Below, piece after piece: positions 52,457-64,000 of a DNA stretch of 64,000 nt. Within the stretch, counting starts at the first letter, position 1, and each line of letters starts with the position of its first letter. The notes below the pieces were generated by a model. The model made no database searches. It was not told the origin of the DNA and saw only the letters and a list, made by a program, of their open reading frames with translations. The stretch lies in contig CANPYM010000022.1 in the NCBI GenBank assembly GCA_947588685.1, positions 309 to 64,308 of the forward strand, in the 5' to 3' direction. The translations under genes were made by a program, and so were the position numbers. The DNA is from an uncultured Bacilli bacterium. GTDB taxonomy: Bacteria; Bacillota_I; Bacilli_A; RF39; UBA660.

Positions 52457-53149
52457 ATGTTTAAACTTTTAAAGTGGCTATTCAAAGATTTCCATCTTTT
52501 TTGTGCAGCCTACTCCAATAATGTTTTCCCTGATCCGCTATCAAAGGAAGAAGAAGAAGACCTTTTAGAGAAAATGAAAAACGGCGATACGAATGCCCGC
52601 AACACTTTAATTGAACACAACCTGCGTTTAGTTGCCCACATTGTTAAAAAATACGATAATAAAAATGAAGATATCGATGATCTTATCAGTATTGGAACCA
52701 TTGGTCTTATTAAAGGTATTGACTCTTTTAATACGAAACATAACGCTAAGCTCACAACCTACATTGCTAAATGTATTGAAAATGAAATTCTTATGTATTA
52801 TCGTTCAAATAAGCGTAACAACCGCAATATTAGTCTTAATGAAGCTATTGGTTATGATAAAGAAGGCGATGAAATTACCCTTCTCGATATTTTAAAAACA
52901 CCTAATCCCGATTTTGCCCTTGATATTCATAACCAAAATAATATTAAATTATTAGATAAATACTTTAAAGTTTTAACAACAAGGGAAAAAGAAATAATTA
53001 CTAAAAGGTATGGTTTAAATGATGAAGATAAAATGACGCAAAAAGAAATTGCTAAAATGTTTAACATCTCTCGTAGTTATGTATCAAGAATTGAAAAAAG
53101 AGCTTTAACGAAAATGTTAAAAGAATATATTAAAAACAAAGATAATTAA
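52457..53149 (+). CDS. sigK: Sporulation sigma factor pro-SigK, uninterrupted
   Basis: Pro-sequence then YSNNVFPDPLS, NTLIEHNLRLVAHIVKKY, DLISIGTIGLIKGIDSF, ENEILM and ISRSYVSRIEKRAL. Confidence 0.93.
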   Translation: MFKLLKWLFKDFHLFCAAYSNNVFPDPLSKEEEEDLLEKMKNGDTNARNTLIEHNLRLVAHIVKKYDNKNEDIDDLISIGTIGLIKGIDSFNTKHNAKLTTYIAKCIENEILMYYRSNKRNNRNISLNEAIGYDKEGDEITLLDILKTPNPDFALDIHNQNNIKLLDKYFKVLTTREKEIITKRYGLNDEDKMTQKEIAKMFNISRSYVSRIEKRALTKMLKEYIKNKDN

Positions 53150-56570: not shown

Positions 56571-56604
56571 AAAAAAAGTAGTAGTTTAGATTGCAACTAC
56601 TACT
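56571..56604 (-). terminator. Terminator at the end of the T7SS locus
   Basis: AGTAGTAGTT-8 nt-AACTACTACT plus T run on the minus strand, overlapping the DUF4176 stop. Confidence 0.8.
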
Positions 56605-57542
56605 CCATTTTCATCAAACTTATAGTTAGCTAATGTTGTTTTTTTTTCCTTACGAGCTGTATTATCAGCTATAACAACGCCATTTTCATCAAATTCTATG
56701 TCTTTCAATATATCCCAATTACTTGGCTCTAACTCTGTTGACTCTCTTTTTTTATCATAAAAAGTTAAAAAGGGGTTTTTAACGGATAGCTTATCAGCTA
56801 TAACAACGCCATCTTCATCAAATTCATAATTAGAAGATGATGATGAATCCGCCGTTTCATCAGATATAACGATGCCGTCCTCATTAAATTTATATTTTGA
56901 ACTAGTTGGTGTTGATGAAGTTGCTGTACCATCAACTATAACAACGCCATTTTCATCAAACTTATATTTTGCAACAGTTTGTGATTGTGGTGCTGCAGAA
57001 CTATCAGATGTAACAACACCGTTTTCATCAAATTCATAATCTGATTTAGCTTGTAATTTAGTTGTAATTGTGCCGTCAGCTATAACAACGCCATTTTCAT
57101 CAAACTTATATTGGCCATTTGGTCTAACTTCAGCAGGTGCTGTGTTATCAACTATGACAACACCATTTTCATCAAATTTATAATTACTATCAGGTTTAAC
57201 TTCAGTAGATGCTGTATTATCAGCTACGACAACGCCATTTTCATCAAACTTATATTGGCCGCTTGTTCTAGTTTCAGTAGGTGCCGTATTATCAGCTACA
57301 ACAACACCGTTTTCATCAAACTTATATTGGCCGCTTGGTCTAGTTTCAGTAGGTGCCGTATTATCAGCTACAACAACGCCATTTTCGTCAAACTTATATT
57401 GGCCGCTTGGTCTAACTTCAGCAGATGCCGTATTATCAACTACGACAACACCGTTTTCATCAAATTTATATTTACTATCAGGTTTAACCTCAGTCAATGT
57501 CGTGCCATCAAAGACAACAACACCATTAGCGTCAAATTTGTA
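56586..57542 (-). repeat. Coding tandem repeat: 72-bp/24-aa period for units 1-10, irregular for 11-13
   Basis: Tyr codons start at 57542, 57470, 57398, 57326 and so on; units 3 and 4 differ at 4 of 72 nt. Confidence 0.95.
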
Positions 57543-57875
57543 ATTATTAGACTCTTCAACTCTAACCACTTCTTTTTTAACTGGTTTTTCTTGTTCTTTT
57601 GTAACTAAAGGTTTACCTGTTTTTAATAAACTAGTGTTTAGTTTTTTATATTCATCATTTTTATAGCCATCAAATATTACTTTTTTAACTGTTGCATGGT
57701 CAAAATGTAATGTATCATCTAAAGAACTAAGGCCATCTGGATATTTAACACCAACATAATTGCAATCAGTACTATTCTCTTGCTCTTGTAAATATCCAAT
57801 TATCATAATATCATCTTTATTATTTTTTATTGAACATATCGTTCCAATTGGTAGATATTTTCGACCCTTTGCCAT
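56586..57875 (-). CDS. DUF4176-domain protein with 13 YKFDENGVV repeats
   Basis: N-terminal YLPIGTICSIK....IMIIG....NYVGVKYPDG...FDHATVKKVIFDGY is the DUF4176 pattern; the C-terminal two-thirds is a repeat array. Confidence 0.85.
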   Translation of the reverse strand: MAKGRKYLPIGTICSIKNNKDDIMIIGYLQEQENSTDCNYVGVKYPDGLSSLDDTLHFDHATVKKVIFDGYKNDEYKKLNTSLLKTGKPLVTKEQEKPVKKEVVRVEESNNYKFDANGVVVFDGTTLTEVKPDSKYKFDENGVVVVDNTASAEVRPSGQYKFDENGVVVADNTAPTETRPSGQYKFDENGVVVADNTAPTETRTSGQYKFDENGVVVADNTASTEVKPDSNYKFDENGVVIVDNTAPAEVRPNGQYKFDENGVVIADGTITTKLQAKSDYEFDENGVVTSDSSAAPQSQTVAKYKFDENGVVIVDGTATSSTPTSSKYKFNEDGIVISDETADSSSSSNYEFDEDGVVIADKLSVKNPFLTFYDKKRESTELEPSNWDILKDIEFDENGVVIADNTARKEKKTTLANYKFDENGVVVAI

Positions 57876-57894: not shown

Positions 57895-58206
57895 CTATTT
57901 TATAATTTCTCTTTGCTTTTCCACGGAATTAGTTGGCAATAAGCTGACACCGCCCGATAACTCATTTTCTACAGCGTTACATAAATTAATACTTTTATTT
58001 ATCCAACTACTCATATCAGATAACTCATTGTATATTTCATTAATTCTTTTAGTAAATTCATTATAACGAGAACGATACGAAAAGTCTGATGGGGCATATA
58101 GTCTTTGAGCTATACCCCTAGCATATCCTACATATGTTTTAGAACTATCAACACTAGATAAAACTACAGTTTCTAAAGAACTTCTATTTACAACTAATTT
58201 TGTCAT
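57895..58206 (-). CDS. WXG100-like helical hairpin protein (no canonical WXG)
   Basis: 103 aa, helix-turn(APSDFSY)-helix, SD AGGAG; last of the six-gene array. Confidence 0.6.
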   Translation of the reverse strand: MTKLVVNRSSLETVVLSSVDSSKTYVGYARGIAQRLYAPSDFSYRSRYNEFTKRINEIYNELSDMSSWINKSINLCNAVENELSGGVSLLPTNSVEKQREIIK

Positions 58207-58207
58207 A

Positions 58208-58495
58208 CTATCTCCTTACCTGATTTACGATTTCATCATAAGCATTCGCACAATTGATAAGATATTCTCCATACTTATACAAATCTTTAGCAAAATTCAT
58301 ATAAGTTGGCTTATTCCCTAGCACTGCTGCCGAATATTTTTCAGCAGTAGGTCCAACCCACTCTCGTGTTTCTGTAGGAATTTTTTCAAAACGTGTAAAC
58401 ATTTCGTTATATGTTAGCTTTAGCTCTTCAACTAGCTTTAGTATATCATCGCCACATTCACGAATTCTTTTAGTATCTACTTTTATCTCTTCCAT
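58208..58495 (-). CDS. WXG100-family protein
   Basis: 95 aa; IKVDT N-terminus, central WVG motif and C-terminal helix ..ANAYDE; SD AGGAGG. Confidence 0.85.
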   Translation of the reverse strand: MEEIKVDTKRIRECGDDILKLVEELKLTYNEMFTRFEKIPTETREWVGPTAEKYSAAVLGNKPTYMNFAKDLYKYGEYLINCANAYDEIVNQVRR

Positions 58496-58505
58496 ACGTC
58501 CTCCT

Positions 58506-58534
58506 AAAAAGAAAGACTAGCTGACTAGCTAATC
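58506..58534 (-). terminator. Internal terminator in the WXG100 array
   Basis: GATTAGCT-agtc-AGCTAGTC (one G-U) followed by TTTCTTTTT on the minus strand, between the 4th and 5th small genes. Confidence 0.75.
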
Positions 58535-58546
58535 CTCATAATTAAT

Positions 58547-58831
58547 CTACATCACGCTATTTATAGCTTTCTTAACATTAGAAATCTTTTGATTTATACT
58601 AGGAATACAAGTGTTTTGAAGAAAGTCTCTTTCAGCAACTAATCGATTATAAATAGAGTTAATCTTTCCTTCATCAGCTTTCGAATCATCTAAAGAGAAA
58701 CTACTATCGACTTTATCTTTTGACGATTCTAGAAGAGAAATAGCATTATTTAAATAACCGATCATTCGATAAATTTCATTCTTAAAATACTCATAATTTC
58801 CTTTATCGCGTATTAAATCTGATGTTTCCAT
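58547..58831 (-). CDS. WXG100-like small helical protein (Lap/YwqH-like candidate)
   Basis: 94 aa, two long amphipathic helices around FSLDD; 5 nt from the upstream stop. Confidence 0.55.
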   Translation of the reverse strand: METSDLIRDKGNYEYFKNEIYRMIGYLNNAISLLESSKDKVDSSFSLDDSKADEGKINSIYNRLVAERDFLQNTCIPSINQKISNVKKAINSVM

Positions 58832-58836
58832 TTATT

Positions 58837-59325
58837 CTATTTTGTTTCAGTGTAAACAGTGGAATTATCACTAAGTCCTGATGTTGAACTAGAAATATTT
58901 CCAGCAAAATTTGCAGAACTTGTTTTCCAAGCGTTTTCAACATCAGCTAATTTGTCAGAAAAAGCTAATAAATCGCTAATTAATGCACTACAATAGCTTT
59001 TTACAGATTCAACATAAGATACAACTGCTTGTTGTATTTCTTCACTTTTATAAGCACCTGATGCATCAGCGTTAGCATCGATTTCACCTATTTTTGCTTG
59101 TAAATTACTAACAGATGTTCTTATTGCTTCACGCATTGTAGGAACTTTAGCAGCATTAATACCAACGACATCTAAACCGCCGCCACCAAAAAGTGATCCT
59201 AGAGATCCTAAAATACCGCCACCATCTGCAGCTGTACGTGTAGCAGCTCTTCCATCCATTGCTGCTTGTGCAGCTTGTTTTGCATCAAATTCTGATACTG
59301 TTTGTGTTGCTTCCCAATTTGCCAT
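58837..59325 (-). CDS. WXG100-like protein with about 50-aa Ala/Gly-rich N-terminal extension
   Basis: 162 aa; extension ending GGGILGSLGSLFGGGG, then hairpin with GAYKS turn; SD AGGAGG. Confidence 0.65.
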   Translation of the reverse strand: MANWEATQTVSEFDAKQAAQAAMDGRAATRTAADGGGILGSLGSLFGGGGLDVVGINAAKVPTMREAIRTSVSNLQAKIGEIDANADASGAYKSEEIQQAVVSYVESVKSYCSALISDLLAFSDKLADVENAWKTSSANFAGNISSSTSGLSDNSTVYTETK

Positions 59326-59336
59326 AATTATCCTCC

Positions 59337-59645
59337 TTACTCACCAATCATATTTTCGTCCTGATTATAATAATAGTTTGCTAACTCTGATAGTCTTGCA
59401 TCCAAATCATTATACTCAGCCGTTAAATCGCTTTTTATTAAATCGATTTCAGCTTGTAACTGCTCCTTAAATCTGTCACATGAAACTCCTACCCAACCAC
59501 CGTCAACAGCTGTTACGATATTTTGGTATTCAGTATCAAGGTTTTCTGACATTGTTGTTAAAATTTGAGTTTTTAAATTTTCTTTATAAGTGTTCATTCC
59601 TGAACTTGATACACCAATGTCTAAATCTCCAATTCCTAGACTCAT
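59337..59645 (-). CDS. WXG100-family protein
   Basis: 102 aa, central GGWVGVSCDRF and C-terminal YYNQD (YxxxD); SD AGGAGG. Confidence 0.85.
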   Translation of the reverse strand: MSLGIGDLDIGVSSSGMNTYKENLKTQILTTMSENLDTEYQNIVTAVDGGWVGVSCDRFKEQLQAEIDLIKSDLTAEYNDLDARLSELANYYYNQDENMIGE

Positions 59646-59646
59646 A

Positions 59647-60003
59647 CTACAATTCCTCCTTCATATTTTCTTTTTGACGGACTTGCCTTTGAGCCTCATT
59701 TATCAATTCAGTAGCTTCAACTTCAAGCTTACTATAATTGCCTTTTAATTTTAACAAGTCGTCATTATAAACTAAGATATTTTGGTTAACAGTATTTATA
59801 GTTGGGACAAGTTGCTCAAACTTGCTTCGAAATAAATCAGCTTCAGAACTAACATAATATTCTCTCGTTTCACGAATTAACATTTCAATAGCATTAGTTA
59901 TCCGCTTACTTTTTTCCGCATAGTCTATAACATCAACCATAAGCTTATCTAGTTTCGATGTCGATACACCAAGTGTATTAGAGCTATTATCCACTACTAT
60001 CAC
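59647..60003 (-). CDS. WXG100-like protein (Y-x-S turn)
   Basis: Helix-EYYVSSEADLF-helix and C-terminal YSKLE (YxxxE). The true start may be GTG 59994 behind AGGTGA. Confidence 0.7.
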   Translation of the reverse strand: MIVVDNSSNTLGVSTSKLDKLMVDVIDYAEKSKRITNAIEMLIRETREYYVSSEADLFRSKFEQLVPTINTVNQNILVYNDDLLKLKGNYSKLEVEATELINEAQRQVRQKENMKEEL

Positions 60004-60034: not shown

Positions 60035-60063
60035 ATATTAACATAATATATTACTAATTTCAA
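60035..60063 (-). promoter_or_regulatory. SigA promoter of the WXG100 array
   Basis: TTGAAA-17 nt-TAATAT with TG extended -10 on the minus strand. Confidence 0.65.
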
Positions 60064-60097
60064 CATTTTTTTGACAAATTTAACCCATTTTAGGTAC

Positions 60098-61771
60098 TTA
60101 TTTACGATTTGTTAGAACTACATTAGTAGGTTTCATACCAACATTTTGAGTGTTATATTTTGTTAAGTATGAAATTTCATCATCACTTAAAAGATTACTA
60201 GTAGATAAATTTTCATCCGACATATAGTAATTATTGTACATCGTAAACACATCTTGTGATGTAATACCTAATTGCTGAGCAAGACATCCGAAGAAAGTTT
60301 GTTGCACATTGTCATAAAAAGCAATAAAATCACTATTATACTCATCTCTAGAACTATCGTTATATTTAACTAAACGATTCATATCATTTTCAAATAGTTT
60401 TATTAATCCAAAAATTGACTCTAAACTTTCTCCTTTATTCCCTATAGCATCTAATAAATTAGTATAGAAAATTTTAGTCAAAGTTTGAGCGGCTGAACTA
60501 TATAGGGAAAACTCGTATTTATATGGCACTTCTATCTGACAATTATCATAAAAGGCTTTATTTCGACCATAAATTATTTCAAAGGAAAACATCATCTTTA
60601 TTATTTCTTCGACGTCTTCTTCACTATTTGCATTAAAAATTCTTAAAAACTTATTTAAATCAGGTTGCAAAGATAATCTTGGAATAGTTAGTTCAGATAC
60701 ATCATCACGGAGAATAGTAGCTAAAGTTAATGTATCAATAGTTTTCATATATTCGGGATAAACAATATTTTCTCCACTAACATCATTATATACATTCATC
60801 AACTTTTCAGCGCATCCCTCAACAAACCATTGATAGCTTAAAGCATTAACTGGTAAATCAGCCCATTCATAATATATTCCCGTGTTTTTTGTGTATCCTT
60901 CATGTTCTTTTTCTTCATTACTGCTCGCTTGAATTAAATGGTTAGTCTCATGACATGCTACTTCATAAAAGAAATCCATGCCGCCAAAAACTTCAATAAC
61001 ATTTATATTCAATGACAATATCTTATCATCTTCAACCATTACCCCATTACCTTGACCATGATTACACAAAATTTTTAATTCCTGTAAATTTTTATCAAGT
61101 TGATTAACATCAATATTTTGTTCATAATCTTCAGCCAAATTTTTATTAATTGTCGCTACAACGGCATTAAAAGCTTGTTCAAAATACGAACTTGAAAATT
61201 CTTCATATAATGCCCCAGTATAAGAAGCCATATATGCATTGTTATTATTAACAACTATTTCATGTAATTTATTAGCATCAACTTGACGATTGTTAATAAT
61301 TTTTAAATCACTACTTGATTCATATTCAACCATTGAATTATATTTGGCTAGAGCATCTTGGATATGAAAAAATTCACTATTTGCATAATTAGTATGATGC
61401 CCTGAAAGCAAATTCCTAAATGCCGACGTATCAACACCATTAAAATTTATTTGTTGATTATACATTTCTAAATTAGCAGTGCTTGCAGTATCCTCTTGTG
61501 GCTGAATAGGTGTAGCAGTAGAACTTGTCATCATAGAAGAGTCATCTACTGCTACTTCAATATTTTGATTATTTTCATCAATAGTATTTCCCTCATTATC
61601 ATATATTTCTACATAATATGATCCTTCATCAGCCCGAGCTGATACTTTAAAAACAGTTGCCGTTGAAACACTAAAGCCAATTATTGTAGCTAGCGAAATA
61701 GCCATTAATTTAATCCTTTTAGTTCTATTTTTAAACCATTTTACATTTATATTTCTTATCACTATAATCAC
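60098..61771 (-). CDS. Secreted or N-anchored protein with HEXXH zinc-metalloprotease-like motif
   Basis: Basic and hydrophobic N-terminus ending ARA-DE; ACHETNH (60938-60952) and downstream FVEGCAE. Confidence 0.7.
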   Translation of the reverse strand: MIIVIRNINVKWFKNRTKRIKLMAISLATIIGFSVSTATVFKVSARADEGSYYVEIYDNEGNTIDENNQNIEVAVDDSSMMTSSTATPIQPQEDTASTANLEMYNQQINFNGVDTSAFRNLLSGHHTNYANSEFFHIQDALAKYNSMVEYESSSDLKIINNRQVDANKLHEIVVNNNNAYMASYTGALYEEFSSSYFEQAFNAVVATINKNLAEDYEQNIDVNQLDKNLQELKILCNHGQGNGVMVEDDKILSLNINVIEVFGGMDFFYEVACHETNHLIQASSNEEKEHEGYTKNTGIYYEWADLPVNALSYQWFVEGCAEKLMNVYNDVSGENIVYPEYMKTIDTLTLATILRDDVSELTIPRLSLQPDLNKFLRIFNANSEEDVEEIIKMMFSFEIIYGRNKAFYDNCQIEVPYKYEFSLYSSAAQTLTKIFYTNLLDAIGNKGESLESIFGLIKLFENDMNRLVKYNDSSRDEYNSDFIAFYDNVQQTFFGCLAQQLGITSQDVFTMYNNYYMSDENLSTSNLLSDDEISYLTKYNTQNVGMKPTNVVLTNRK

Positions 61772-61812: not shown

Positions 61813-62067
61813 TTAAATCAAAACAATGCTACTCCCATTTCTTATATTTGTTTCTCTAATCAATTGGTTTGTACCATATATTTCGCCTGTTTCACGATCG
61901 TATAATCTTACTTTATCATCAGGATTATATTCACCGCTTGTAAGTTCAAAAACAGATTTTTTTAGAAGAATTATTACGTTACATATCCTAGCATTTATGG
62001 GTAAATATACATTATATATTTCGTCAATTGTAGGTACATATAAACGAACGGCAAATTTATCATTCAT
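61813..62067 (-). CDS. Ubiquitin-like T7SS accessory protein YukD/EsaB
   Basis: 84 aa; beta-grasp pattern VRLYVP...YNVYLP...I..V...L...LIRETNIRNGSSIVLI; overlaps the essC stop. Confidence 0.8.
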   Translation of the reverse strand: MNDKFAVRLYVPTIDEIYNVYLPINARICNVIILLKKSVFELTSGEYNPDDKVRLYDRETGEIYGTNQLIRETNIRNGSSIVLI

Positions 62068-64000
62068 TTTCTTCTTCCTCCTCAACCATGTATTTTATAA
62101 TTGTATGATTTCCTTTAACGATTGAATAACCAATGCAAGGGAAATTCATTTTTCTTTCTTCAATAGTAATATTTGGAACATTAATAACCAACTGATTAGC
62201 AGCATCTTCGGCTAACCATATACCAGTTGAATTATCAACGTTAGATTGATACCACAAATCAACTTGAATATTTTTATAAGATGATAACACATCTATCAAA
62301 ACCACTTTTGCATTATTAATTGAGGTAATATTAGAAAATAATCTATTTAATAAATCCTTACTATTGTTATTTAAATACTTTTTATAGGCACCAATTCCCA
62401 AGAAAAAGTAAACTGTAACATCACTAGAATCTCTACCCTTTACAATTTCGTTATTAACTTTAACAAGATTACTGTCATAGTTGTCTTTATAACATTCTAC
62501 ATTTTCAATATCCTTTTCATAAGCTTGAACAAAATCAAATACTTTTACCTTTGTATTTTCCAGTTTTGAGCATATCCTTATAAGTGAATTAATAAAACTC
62601 ATTCGTTCAGGCGACATAGCATTAGTTACAATTTGGGTAAATGTATTGGTACTAAAGTCAAAATTAACTATTTCCTTTGTCGTTATACTATAACCAATTG
62701 GTACTTCTTTAAGATCTGTTAGTTTATCATAGAATTCACTAGCAATCACTTTGTTTGGTATTGTAGGTATACGTTTAGCCTTAATTTTATAAGCGTTATT
62801 ATATGTTTCACTAGCCCGCATAATAAATTCGTTTATTTGCTCTTTGGCTACATAGAAAGCTGTTTGAAATTCATATATTCCCTTATCCAAGAAACAAAGT
62901 CCACGGCCAAAAAATTTAGATGGAAATAGACCCTTTGGAGCACCTAGTTGGTTTCTATAATCCTCATCGTTTGGTAATTGTAGACAAAGTTTATTAGGGA
63001 AATTTTGTACTTGTCTAGATTTAAGAGTTAAAGGTGAAAGTTCACTTATAATAAATACTAATCCATATCTTGAACCATCACGATATATAGTATATAAGCT
63101 TTCAGCAAAACGTCCATACGTCTCTGTAAATACCTCTAAATTATTAATTATCGTCACAATTAAAGGTAACTTTTTATCATTGTGTTTAATATATTCTTCA
63201 TAACTACCACCAAAATCAGACATCATTTCTTTACGACGATCTAATTCTTTAAAAAGCATATCAAATATGTCATATACTTTATTTTCTTCATCGATTGTTG
63301 CAATGTCACCAATATGAGGCATCTTATTAAATATTTTTAACGATTCTGTTCCACAATCCACAATATAAAAATTAACTTCAGATGGAGTATGATCAGTAAT
63401 TGTAGATAGAAGAATGGTTGTAATTAAGTTTTCTTTACCACTACCTTGTTTACCTATAATTAAAGTATTACCTTCGTGGGTTAGGTTAAGGTGAAGAAGA
63501 TTTTGCTCTTGTGACGCTGGAACATCATATTCTCCAATGACTGGGTCAATAACATATGGTTGCTTTTGGTAATCATATTTAGTTTTCAAATTAGGGACAA
63601 AAATATTAGCTGGTATGGCATCTAGCCATAATTTATTGGAAACAATATTTTCTTTAACACCCAAATCATAAATATATTTAACAATATTAGTAAGTTGATC
63701 ACCTAAATCTTCAACAGGTGTATCATTTTTTACATTTTCTTTAGCACTCTTGATGATAGTTCCTGAATCATCGATAAAGTTGATTGAGTCGTCAACTTTT
63801 TTAACAATTTTATCACTTGGAATGTATTTGGCTCCAGCCCAACCTGATTGTCCTTTATCAAAAAAGTCATCATATCCTACCTGTAAGTAGAAACGTCCTG
63901 CTTCTTTAATACTTGCTGCATCTGGTTTCTTCAACATTTCCATACTGTCGCCACGATCCTGAACTTTAAGGCAAACCTTAAATTTAGAGTTAGACCATAT
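62060..64000 (-). CDS. essC: Type VII secretion FtsK/SpoIIIE ATPase EssC/YukB (5' truncated by window edge)
   Basis: Frame open to the window end (IWSNSKFKVCLKVQDRGDSMEML, end of ATPase D1); AGRFYLQVG, WLDAIP, GEYDVPASQEQ, GKQGSGK, YIVDCG, ELDRRK and GRGL. Confidence 0.93.
   Translation of the reverse strand: MWSNSKFKVCLKVQDRGDSMEMLKKPDAASIKEAGRFYLQVGYDDFFDKGQSGWAGAKYIPSDKIVKKVDDSINFIDDSGTIIKSAKENVKNDTPVEDLGDQLTNIVKYIYDLGVKENIVSNKLWLDAIPANIFVPNLKTKYDYQKQPYVIDPVIGEYDVPASQEQNLLHLNLTHEGNTLIIGKQGSGKENLITTILLSTITDHTPSEVNFYIVDCGTESLKIFNKMPHIGDIATIDEENKVYDIFDMLFKELDRRKEMMSDFGGSYEEYIKHNDKKLPLIVTIINNLEVFTETYGRFAESLYTIYRDGSRYGLVFIISELSPLTLKSRQVQNFPNKLCLQLPNDEDYRNQLGAPKGLFPSKFFGRGLCFLDKGIYEFQTAFYVAKEQINEFIMRASETYNNAYKIKAKRIPTIPNKVIASEFYDKLTDLKEVPIGYSITTKEIVNFDFSTNTFTQIVTNAMSPERMSFINSLIRICSKLENTKVKVFDFVQAYEKDIENVECYKDNYDSNLVKVNNEIVKGRDSSDVTVYFFLGIGAYKKYLNNNSKDLLNRLFSNITSINNAKVVLIDVLSSYKNIQVDLWYQSNVDNSTGIWLAEDAANQLVINVPNITIEERKMNFPCIGYSIVKGNHTIIKYMVEEEEENE

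Follow-up and report, generated by a model that had tools for sequence, protein, structure and literature searches.

A conserved toxin-less array of six putative helical hairpin proteins accompanies an EssC-type ATPase in uncultured gut Bacilli

Six Tandem Genes in a Type VII Secretion Operon

The 64,000-nucleotide stretch of DNA analyzed here (the window) comes from an uncultured Bacilli bacterium (contig CANPYM010000022.1 of assembly GCA_947588685.1, positions 309 to 64,308). On its minus strand it carries six tandem genes for small proteins, g1 to g6, in an operon headed by an EssC-type ATPase of a type VII secretion system (T7SS). Judged from sequence, the six appear to make up a conserved module of helical hairpins without a toxin, in which four diverged proteins of the WXG100 superfamily stand beside a previously unmodelled pair of carrier and partner proteins, in the setting of a reduced T7SS.

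Read along the minus strand, the array opens with g1 (59647-60003), whose 118 amino acids (aa) begin at a GTG start behind a weak ribosome-binding site and would form a WXG100-superfamily hairpin devoid of tryptophan. It is followed by g2 (59337-59645, 102 aa), a WXG100-like hairpin with both a WxG turn and a C-terminal motif and a candidate carrier of an export signal, and by g3 (58837-59325, 162 aa), where an N-terminal extension of ~50 residues precedes a g1-like hairpin (residues 52-160) with no WxG. The product of g4 (58547-58831, 94 aa) is a helical hairpin with a conserved turn, [FY].ID...AD, and represents a putative small-partner family. In g5 (58208-58495, 95 aa), again a WXG100-like hairpin, EW.G is invariant and D7, G15, K62 and G76 are conserved. 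The array closes with g6 (57895-58206, 103 aa), a helical hairpin with an [IV]P.DF loop, Trp68 and a short C-terminal helix.

The initial annotation of the window had described these as six tandem open reading frames (ORFs), and the ORF list bears out their lengths as well as the gaps between them (1, 11, 5, 51 and 1 nucleotides (nt) from g1 to g6). The central motifs it had named, YVS, WVG, YKS, FSLDD, WVG and PSDFSY, are all found, as are the C-terminal sequences YSKLE in g1 and YYNQD in g2. Its impression that the genes share no similarity at the DNA level also holds, with blastn among all six returning short chance matches only.

Strong Shine-Dalgarno sequences precede g2, g3, g5 and g6, not g1 and g4. 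None of the six products has a transmembrane segment, the maximum 19-residue hydropathy of g3 being 1.45; g1 to g5 are acidic and g6 is basic (isoelectric point 8.8). The six ORFs are real genes and not chance ORFs, because all six are intact and colinear in every covered orthologous locus of the genus and in two paralogous ones, and also across about 13 other genera. All six products are predicted or likely to be soluble, cytoplasmic helical hairpins encoded within a T7SS operon.

Homology of g1, g2, g3 and g5 to the WXG100 Superfamily

Comparison of orthologue alignments, which comprised 15 and then 28 sequences, offers a greater level of detail than the single proteins. HHalign links g1 with g3 at 97% over 106 colinear columns, g2 with g3 at 89%, g2 with g5 at 88%, g1 with g2 at 76% and g1 with g5 at 74%. 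Searched against the PDB, the g1 profile matches 4lws_A (E 0.0098), B. anthracis EsxB (4j7k, E 0.15) and LapA4 (8gmh_C, E 0.5), the g2 profile matches S. aureus EsxA (2vs0, E 1.1e-3) as well as SAG1039 and ESAT-6, and the g5 profile matches Geobacillus EsxA (3zbh, E 4e-3). The hidden Markov model (HMM) of g5 additionally matches, at E 4.5e-17, a protein that itself lies above the TIGR03930 WXG100 cut-off. Among the 15 g1 orthologues, eight match the Pfam WXG100 model below its threshold (best E 3.4e-4). The HHalign links together with the profile matches to EsxA, EsxB and ESAT-6 indicate that g1, g2, g3 and g5 are old, diverged members of the WXG100 superfamily.

The initial reading of all six genes as old WXG100-like paralogs is thus retained in part. 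It stands for these four, which are connected by profile homology at 74-97%, and falls for g4 and g6, which have no detectable link; a WxG turn is limited to g2 and g5, and no member reaches the Pfam cut-off. On the Pfam WXG100 model g2 and g5 score 14.1 and 12.8 bits against a cut-off of 27.3, and on TIGR03930 g5 scores 13.4 bits against 44.85. The g1, g3, g4 and g6 proteins of this genome give no match to PF06013 or TIGR03930.

The orthologues display distinct motif patterns. WxG is present in all 27 g2 and all 28 g5 orthologues and in none of those of g1, g4 and g6; in g3 it occurs in 5 of 28, at non-homologous positions. The turn of g1 reads YF.CESGD.FR in relatives and YYVSSEAD in this genome. 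Near the C-terminus of g2, 25 of 27 orthologues have the pattern [YWMFI]xxxDxx[LMI][VI] at a fixed alignment column, where shuffled sequences would give 0.42. It corresponds to the core HxxxDxxh of the HxxxD/ExxhxxxH pattern defined for the C-terminus of WXG100 proteins (PMC3935865), the full 12-residue form of which occurs at chance level in all six families. In known WXG100 proteins, a motif of this HxxxD/E type contributes to the export signal. The proposal of YxxxD/E-type C-termini in two of the proteins therefore survives for g2 and not for g1, where the YSKLE-type motif is found in 5 of 28 orthologues, at chance level.

The N-terminal extension of g3 has a conserved MANWEATT start and a variable linker rich in Gly, Ala and Phe, and is absent in G008b, G312, G160 and G157. 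Neither the profile search nor scans of the individual members yielded a PDB relative or a recurrent Pfam family for g3.

Two Separate Hairpin Families, g4 and g6

AlphaFold2, run on 10-sequence alignments, predicts both remaining proteins as helical hairpins. The g4 model has a mean predicted local distance difference test score (pLDDT) of 88.7 and helices at residues 2-44 and 48-93; the g6 model has a pLDDT of 82.9 and helices at residues 8-35, 45-87 and 92-102. Neither protein has a relative in Pfam, NCBIfam or the PDB, deep alignments included.

Several candidate identities were considered and rejected. The top PDB profile matches of g3, g4 and g6, to viral heptad repeats and V-ATPase stalks, were judged compositional, also with deep alignments. 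In Foldseek searches with the g4 and g6 models, WXG100, PE and Lap chains are scattered among Rad50, PI3K iSH2 and designed bundles; since these matches are generic, fold alone cannot assign g4 or g6 to a family. Reciprocal HMM matches and an HHalign value of 61% seemed to connect g4 and g6 with each other. As the alignments are non-colinear and their register shifts between sequences, we take these cross-matches as coiled-coil noise. The LDxD domain (PMC3482391), considered as the identity of g6, differs in motif spacing and stays an unconfirmed lead.

As a separate observation, g4 ends at ~94 aa in this genome and in its closest relative, and in nearly all other relatives it continues into a Glu/Arg-rich tail of 10 to 80+ residues.

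Toxin-Fused Homologues of g6

A word-index homologue search with g6 gave eight proteins. An exhaustive search of 1.84 billion representative proteins with an HMM of the g6 alignment (E<=1e-3) was needed to reveal the family, which in this search comprises 583 clusters. Among the best 150 family representatives, 126 are stand-alone proteins of ~100 aa and 13 are proteins of 313-1711 aa with the g6-like domain at residues 1-87. These fused forms (g6N effectors) keep the IP.DF loop and the tryptophan, and their C-termini carry either ADPrib_exo_Tox, an ADP-ribosyltransferase exoenzyme, together with HD, or Peptidase_C39_2. The LXG model (PF04740) gives no match on ten of the toxin-fused homologues at E<=1e-3.

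The loci of the g6N effectors resemble the array in their composition. Upstream context is readable in eight of them, and in six (L087, L088, L090, L092, G166 and G008:C1) WXG100 genes and a g4-family gene lie upstream of the effector. DUF4176 adjoins the effector in 6 of the same eight, mostly just downstream, and EssC is encoded alongside in 8 of 8. The usual order is two WXG100 genes (or one fused 204-aa double hairpin), a g4-family gene, the g6N effector, a possible immunity gene, DUF4176, EssC and a YukD-like gene. The g4 HMM matches the small gene upstream of the toxin-fused g6 homologues at E 3e-16 to 2e-10. Locus G008:C1, from the same genus and with a paralogous EssC, reads EssC, YukD-like, g5-like, g1-like, g4-like, a g6N effector of 650 aa and DUF4176, followed by a second set with an effector of 898 aa. 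The genome studied here encodes no large g6N protein, and the operon holds no toxin or immunity candidate.

These homologies and contexts indicate that g6 is the free-standing form of an N-terminal effector-carrier ("shaft") domain, that g4 belongs to a dedicated family of small partners of g6-type carriers, and that g5-type and g1-type proteins correspond to the WXG/non-WXG pair accompanying them in toxin loci. The array as a whole looks like a T7SS effector pre-secretion complex that lacks the toxin and is joined by a further WXG100-superfamily pair. The composite-signal analogy to Lap and LXG proteins, drawn when the window was first annotated, is strengthened by the homology of g6 to the N-terminal domain of toxin effectors and of g4 to the gene preceding them.

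Fusions of another kind were also noted. In L087, L090, L092 and G166 (L084), tandem fusions of two WXG100 hairpins (204-210 aa) are encoded ahead of the g4-like gene and the g6N effector, a natural arrangement that suggests mutual pairing of the two WXG-type units. At L096 (G006:C11) and L097 (G014:C17) we observed a g3-like protein of 266 aa, a g5-like one of 365 aa, a g2-like one of 242 aa and a g6-like one of 242 aa, each extended at its C-terminus, and therefore several hairpin families can apparently act as N-terminal carriers.

Conservation and Co-Occurrence of the Array

Loci of relatives were fetched by anchoring on EssC and reading the downstream DNA in 20 species of the genus. Wherever the contig covers a locus with an orthologous EssC (50-75% identity in the C-terminal part), the YukD-like gene, a gene for a 557-aa protein (p557), g1 to g6 and one or two DUF4176 genes follow colinearly, and the array order is kept in 16 of the 20 species. 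The paralogous loci G008b and G004b also hold the six families in unchanged order, encoded on the strand opposite to EssC. All 16 genus genomes that have the orthologous EssC also have the g6 family, and none of the 4 that lack this EssC has it. The initial annotation had named variable gene content and order among relatives as a sign of independent cargo genes; copy number and order are both conserved.

Beyond the genus, 300 genomes drawn from across the family were searched with the g6 profile, which found matches in 17 of 214 genera. In 12 of these 17, g1 to g6 are colinear, with G189 added once an overlapping g5 is counted. Colinearity is independent of the presence of p557 or DUF4176 and of the side or strand of EssC, and in about eight genera the genes beyond g6 are unrelated ones for membrane or housekeeping proteins. 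Two permuted arrays were found, g2-g3-g1-g4-g5-g6 in G176 and g4-g5-g6-g1-g2-g3' in G121. In both, g4-g5-g6 stay together and g1, g2 and g3 move as a group. A related-locus search from the close g3 alignment returned nine genome loci and one metagenome locus.

Since p557, DUF4176 and the flanking genes vary and the order of the array holds, the conserved unit is EssC, the small ubiquitin-like gene and the six-gene array.

Operon Context and Reduced Machinery

On the minus strand the operon runs in the order EssC, YukD-like gene, p557, g1 to g6, DUF4176-repeat gene and terminator-like hairpin. The window holds the C-terminal 646 codons of EssC (62060..64000, minus), the full gene extending past the window to contig position C22:66984. 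Full-length EssC measures 1534-1538 aa and has a Pfam FHA match of 33.9 bits and two FtsK_SpoIIIE stretches (161 bits), both domains above cut-off. EssC opens the operon, because the genes upstream of it in relatives are unrelated housekeeping genes.

Directly after EssC lies a gene of 84-90 aa (61813..62085, minus) that we assign, from its position and size, to a probable YukD/EsaB-like ubiquitin-like protein. In nearly every related locus examined, EssC is immediately followed by a gene of this kind, 83-92 aa long. Its product has a weak Pfam match to UBL_ZFAND1 (E 0.025). The Pfam YukD model fails to match the protein of this genome and those of five relatives, the best value being E 0.24 in one relative, and no sequence relatives were found in the PDB.

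The next gene, p557 (60098..61771, minus), encodes 557 aa with a hydrophobic N-terminal leader and an HExxH motif, and has no family match in Pfam or NCBIfam. It is kept in the genus and in five other genera (G337, G169, G138, G106 and G187) and is absent from about eight genera that retain the six-gene array, which places it outside the conserved core, and it is therefore considered accessory. In the 94-nt gap between p557 and g1, two promoter-like hexamer pairs (60035..60077, minus) read TTGTCA-18-TAATAT and TTGAAA-17-TAATAT with an upstream TG; they are consensus matches only, from a scan that found 52 sites against 45.5 expected. A terminator-like hairpin of 11 pairs with a T run (58512..58537, minus), found by pattern scan, lies in the 51-nt gap between g4 and g5, where it might act as an attenuator or divide the array into separate transcripts.

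The last gene of the operon (56586..57875, minus) joins a DUF4176 domain (Pfam E 4.5e-18, 65.5 bits) to a tail with 13 copies of the repeat YKFDENGVV. It occupies the position held by plain DUF4176 chaperones after g6-type toxins. A second hairpin from the pattern scan, resembling an intrinsic terminator (12 pairs and a T run; 56575..56606, minus), marks the operon end.

The surrounding machinery appears reduced. Searches of 20 genus genomes gave no above-cut-off match for EssB/YukC and EsaA with PF10140 and TIGR03929, EssA not being among the models searched, and six-frame searches of the same genomes gave no match for LXG (PF04740). Of the canonical T7SSb traits, an EssC with FHA and FtsK/SpoIIIE domains is found, and EssB/YukC and EsaA/YueB are not. 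The related genomes are metagenome-assembled genomes (MAGs) of uncultured Bacilli from rabbit, mouse and other guts.

The same genome holds further T7SS-like genes. A second minimal locus (contig C2:9070-15975) contains an 83-aa YukD-like gene, a weakly g6-like protein of 92 aa (E 0.0033), an 85-aa WNG protein, a DUF4176 fused to a Pro/Glu-rich tail of 449 aa and a second EssC of 1545 aa, 34% identical to that of the window. A few kb from this EssC, among unrelated neighbours, lies an orphan g3-like ORF of 88 aa without the N-terminal extension (C2:19515-19781; g3 HMM E 1.3e-10). At C1:118725-121055, a 557-aa protein is followed by a 104-aa WQG gene (g5 HMM 1.5e-10) and a 122-aa WAG gene, which may be a third substrate cluster. 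The genome of ~1.2 Mb also encodes what we take to be a SpoIVA-like protein (C2:15995-17482) and a sporulation-type sigma factor (window 52457-53149).

Comparison with Known Systems

The array most readily invites comparison with the S. aureus EsaD system of EsxB, EsxC, EsxD and EsxA (PMC10653861). In both, several non-identical small helical proteins, a mix of WXG100 and non-WXG100 types, are encoded beside EssC with a dedicated chaperone nearby. EsxB, EsxC and EsxD bind the N-terminal transport domain of EsaD and form with it a long, narrow shaft; a corresponding complex may form here, where the hairpin units number six as against four small proteins plus the effector N-domain. The systems differ in that the shaft domain g6 is a free protein of 103 aa, attached neither to a nuclease nor to any other toxin and lacking an immunity gene, that g4 and g6 are unrelated in sequence to EsxC, EsxD and EsaD, that the chaperone is DUF4176 and not EsaE, and that the machine has no recognisable EssB or EsaA.

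A second likeness is to LXG effectors and their Lap partners (Lap1/Lap2, LapA3/LapA4; PMC9600955, PMC10801868, PDB 8GMH), where the LXG domain and two Lap proteins constitute a tripartite secretion signal (PMC10801868). Both arrangements pair the N-terminal helical carrier of polymorphic toxins with small hairpin partners encoded upstream, include DUF4176 genes in their clusters and fit the concept of a composite signal; the g1 profile also weakly touches LapA4. However, Pfam LXG recognises neither g6 nor its toxin-fused homologues, and the system lies outside the LXG family because this model does not match. The deep g6 profile likewise gives no match to the TelA LXG chain or to any Lap chain. 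The g6 carrier is also shorter (~90-100 aa versus ~200 aa for LXG), and the partners of g6-type carriers include bona fide WXG100 proteins. Among the traits of an effector pre-secretion module, a toxin-bearing carrier family and upstream helical partners are found, and a toxin/immunity gene and an LXG match are not. By analogy, the array probably works like the EsaD-EsxBCD and LXG-Lap pre-secretion complexes.

With the WXG100 family proper (EsxA, ESAT-6, CFP-10; PMC3935865), the array shares the helix-turn-helix of ~100 aa, the linkage to an FtsK/SpoIIIE ATPase, the WxG turn in g2 and g5, the HxxxD/E-type C-terminus of g2 and the weak profile matches to EsxA. It departs from that family in that all six members are below cut-off and g1 and g3 lack the tryptophan. 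The sagEsxA-like genes of Firmicutes are mono-cistronic and encode homodimers (PMC3935865), whereas here four diverged members and two unrelated hairpin families share one operon.

Additional small WXG100-related proteins have been proposed as co-secretion partners in T7SS subtypes c to j (PMC11217815), which lack the T7SSb-specific EssA, EssB and EsaA. The present system resembles them in its EssC-type ATPase, its probable ubiquitin-like protein and its WXG100-type core. Unlike those subtypes, it has as its only conserved parts an FHA-bearing EssC, a YukD-like gene and a fixed six-gene array. That survey used RefSeq, and the lineage studied here is known only from MAGs. A full-text literature search found no paper describing such a six-gene array.

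Assembly of the Six Hairpins

We hypothesize that the six proteins come together in the cytoplasm as one or two long bundles of helices, as their homology to toxin loci and the analogies above suggest. In such an assembly, g4 would pack on g6, and the WXG100-type members would contribute WxG and HxxxD to a composite signal. The adjacent EssC ATPase would read this signal and export the complex. The shaft without toxin might itself be the main substrate, or a component required for secretion, as EsxA is in T7SSb, or an adaptor for non-covalent cargo, such as the DUF4176-repeat protein. That the array is so strictly conserved alongside a single EssC type, where EssB, EsaA and LXG are not recognisable, argues for a shaft that is functional in its own right. 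In this lineage the array has become permanently associated with one type of EssC. On balance, we consider it probable that the hairpins form elongated bundles that are recognised together and exported by EssC, as a toxin-less effector pre-secretion complex with extra WXG100 partners.

Several observations weigh against this picture. None of the six proteins reaches a curated WXG100 cut-off in Pfam or NCBIfam, g4 and g6 have no sequence link to solved T7SS partners or to LXG, and Foldseek on their models returns generic antiparallel hairpins at E>0.1. Tight coupling of neighbouring genes is conserved only between g5 and g6, with a gap of <=5 nt in 24 of 28 loci. The source genome is a MAG of 1.16 Mb with 88.7% completeness, so it may miss machine parts or toxins. 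This last point is limited by the fact that EssB, EsaA and LXG are likewise unrecognised in all 20 genus genomes.

A more far-reaching form of the proposal, which we hold to be possible yet doubtful, sees the six proteins as a self-contained, cargo-less shaft and as the obligatory secreted core of a minimal T7SS made of EssC and the ubiquitin-like protein only. Its role could be to prime the channel or open it, to stand in partly for the missing EssA, EssB and EsaA, or to serve as a reusable adaptor that takes non-covalent cargo out of the cell.

The spacing of the genes in the window invites another explanation, the leading one of the initial annotation, in which g1-g2, g3-g4 and g5-g6 form three obligate neighbour heterodimers, each an EsxA/EsxB-like four-helix bundle exported alone. 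The gaps within these pairs are 1, 5 and 1 nt and those between them 11 and 51 nt, the g5-g6 coupling is conserved as described, and heterodimeric WXG100 proteins are known from adjacent genes (PMC3935865). Across 28 loci, however, the short gaps of the first two pairs are not conserved: the medians are 12.5 nt for g1-g2 and 12 nt for g3-g4, g2-g3 being similar, with 22.5 nt for g4-g5 (the longest) and 1 nt for g5-g6. Moreover, g4 accompanies a g6-type domain in toxin loci and not a g3-type protein, and the permuted arrays keep g4-g5-g6 and move g1, g2 and g3 as a group. Rate covariation, an exploratory measure from p-distances with the background regressed out and without a significance test, is highest for g2-g3 (0.75), g4-g6 (0.53) and g3-g5 (0.45), and lowest for the proposed pairs g1-g2 (-0.02), g3-g4 (-0.22) and g5-g6 (-0.14). 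None of this evidence is decisive. The permutations and the design of the toxin loci favour a partnership of g4 with g6, with g1, g2 and g3 forming a group of their own, which leaves the neighbour heterodimers as the weaker reading and an unlikely one.

Alternatively, the six proteins might be cytoplasmic targeting factors or chaperones for a separate cargo, be it the DUF4176-repeat protein or effectors encoded elsewhere, and neither substrates nor core parts themselves. This would agree with the role of Lap proteins and of EsxB, EsxC and EsxD as export factors for a larger effector, with the presence of DUF4176, a chaperone family of T7SS toxins, after g6 here and in many relatives, and with the g6N-fused effectors encoded at other loci of the genus. 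Yet this genome has neither a large protein with a g6-like N-domain nor an LXG protein, the array persists in about eight genera without DUF4176, and toxin loci bring their own g5-, g1- and g4-like partner genes. We find such a role quite improbable for the array.

That the array is a functionless remnant of a decayed toxin module, its toxin and immunity genes lost, is barely credible and close to refuted by conservation: g6 does equal only the first ~87-100 residues of its toxin-bearing homologues and the locus lacks a toxin-immunity pair, but decay or variation between lineages would then be expected, and instead at least 28 loci in at least 14 genera preserve all six ORFs intact and with their motifs, most of the best family representatives stand alone, and within the genus the array occurs exactly where its cognate EssC does.

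Conclusions

How T7SS substrates are recognised is still an open question, and in the current picture effectors join with small helical partners to form a long shaft displaying a composite signal. The co-exported, toxin-less complex favoured here would be a clean and minimal substrate on which to study the structure and mechanism of this recognition, since the natural toxin-less shaft is strictly conserved with its EssC. The g6 family, with at least 583 clusters, and the g4 family are unseen by current Pfam and NCBIfam models, and they mark otherwise unannotated toxins in gut metagenomes.

For the organisms themselves, the locus points to a T7SS variant in which neither EssB nor EsaA can be recognised, and which belongs to a large, uncultured family of gut Bacilli whose genomes measure ~1 Mb. 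Should the six proteins be the obligatory core of this machine, g6 and g4 would define a new effector-carrier/partner pair distinct from LXG and Lap. If they prove essential for secretion, the array would extend the puzzle of why EsxA is needed for the function of the machine.

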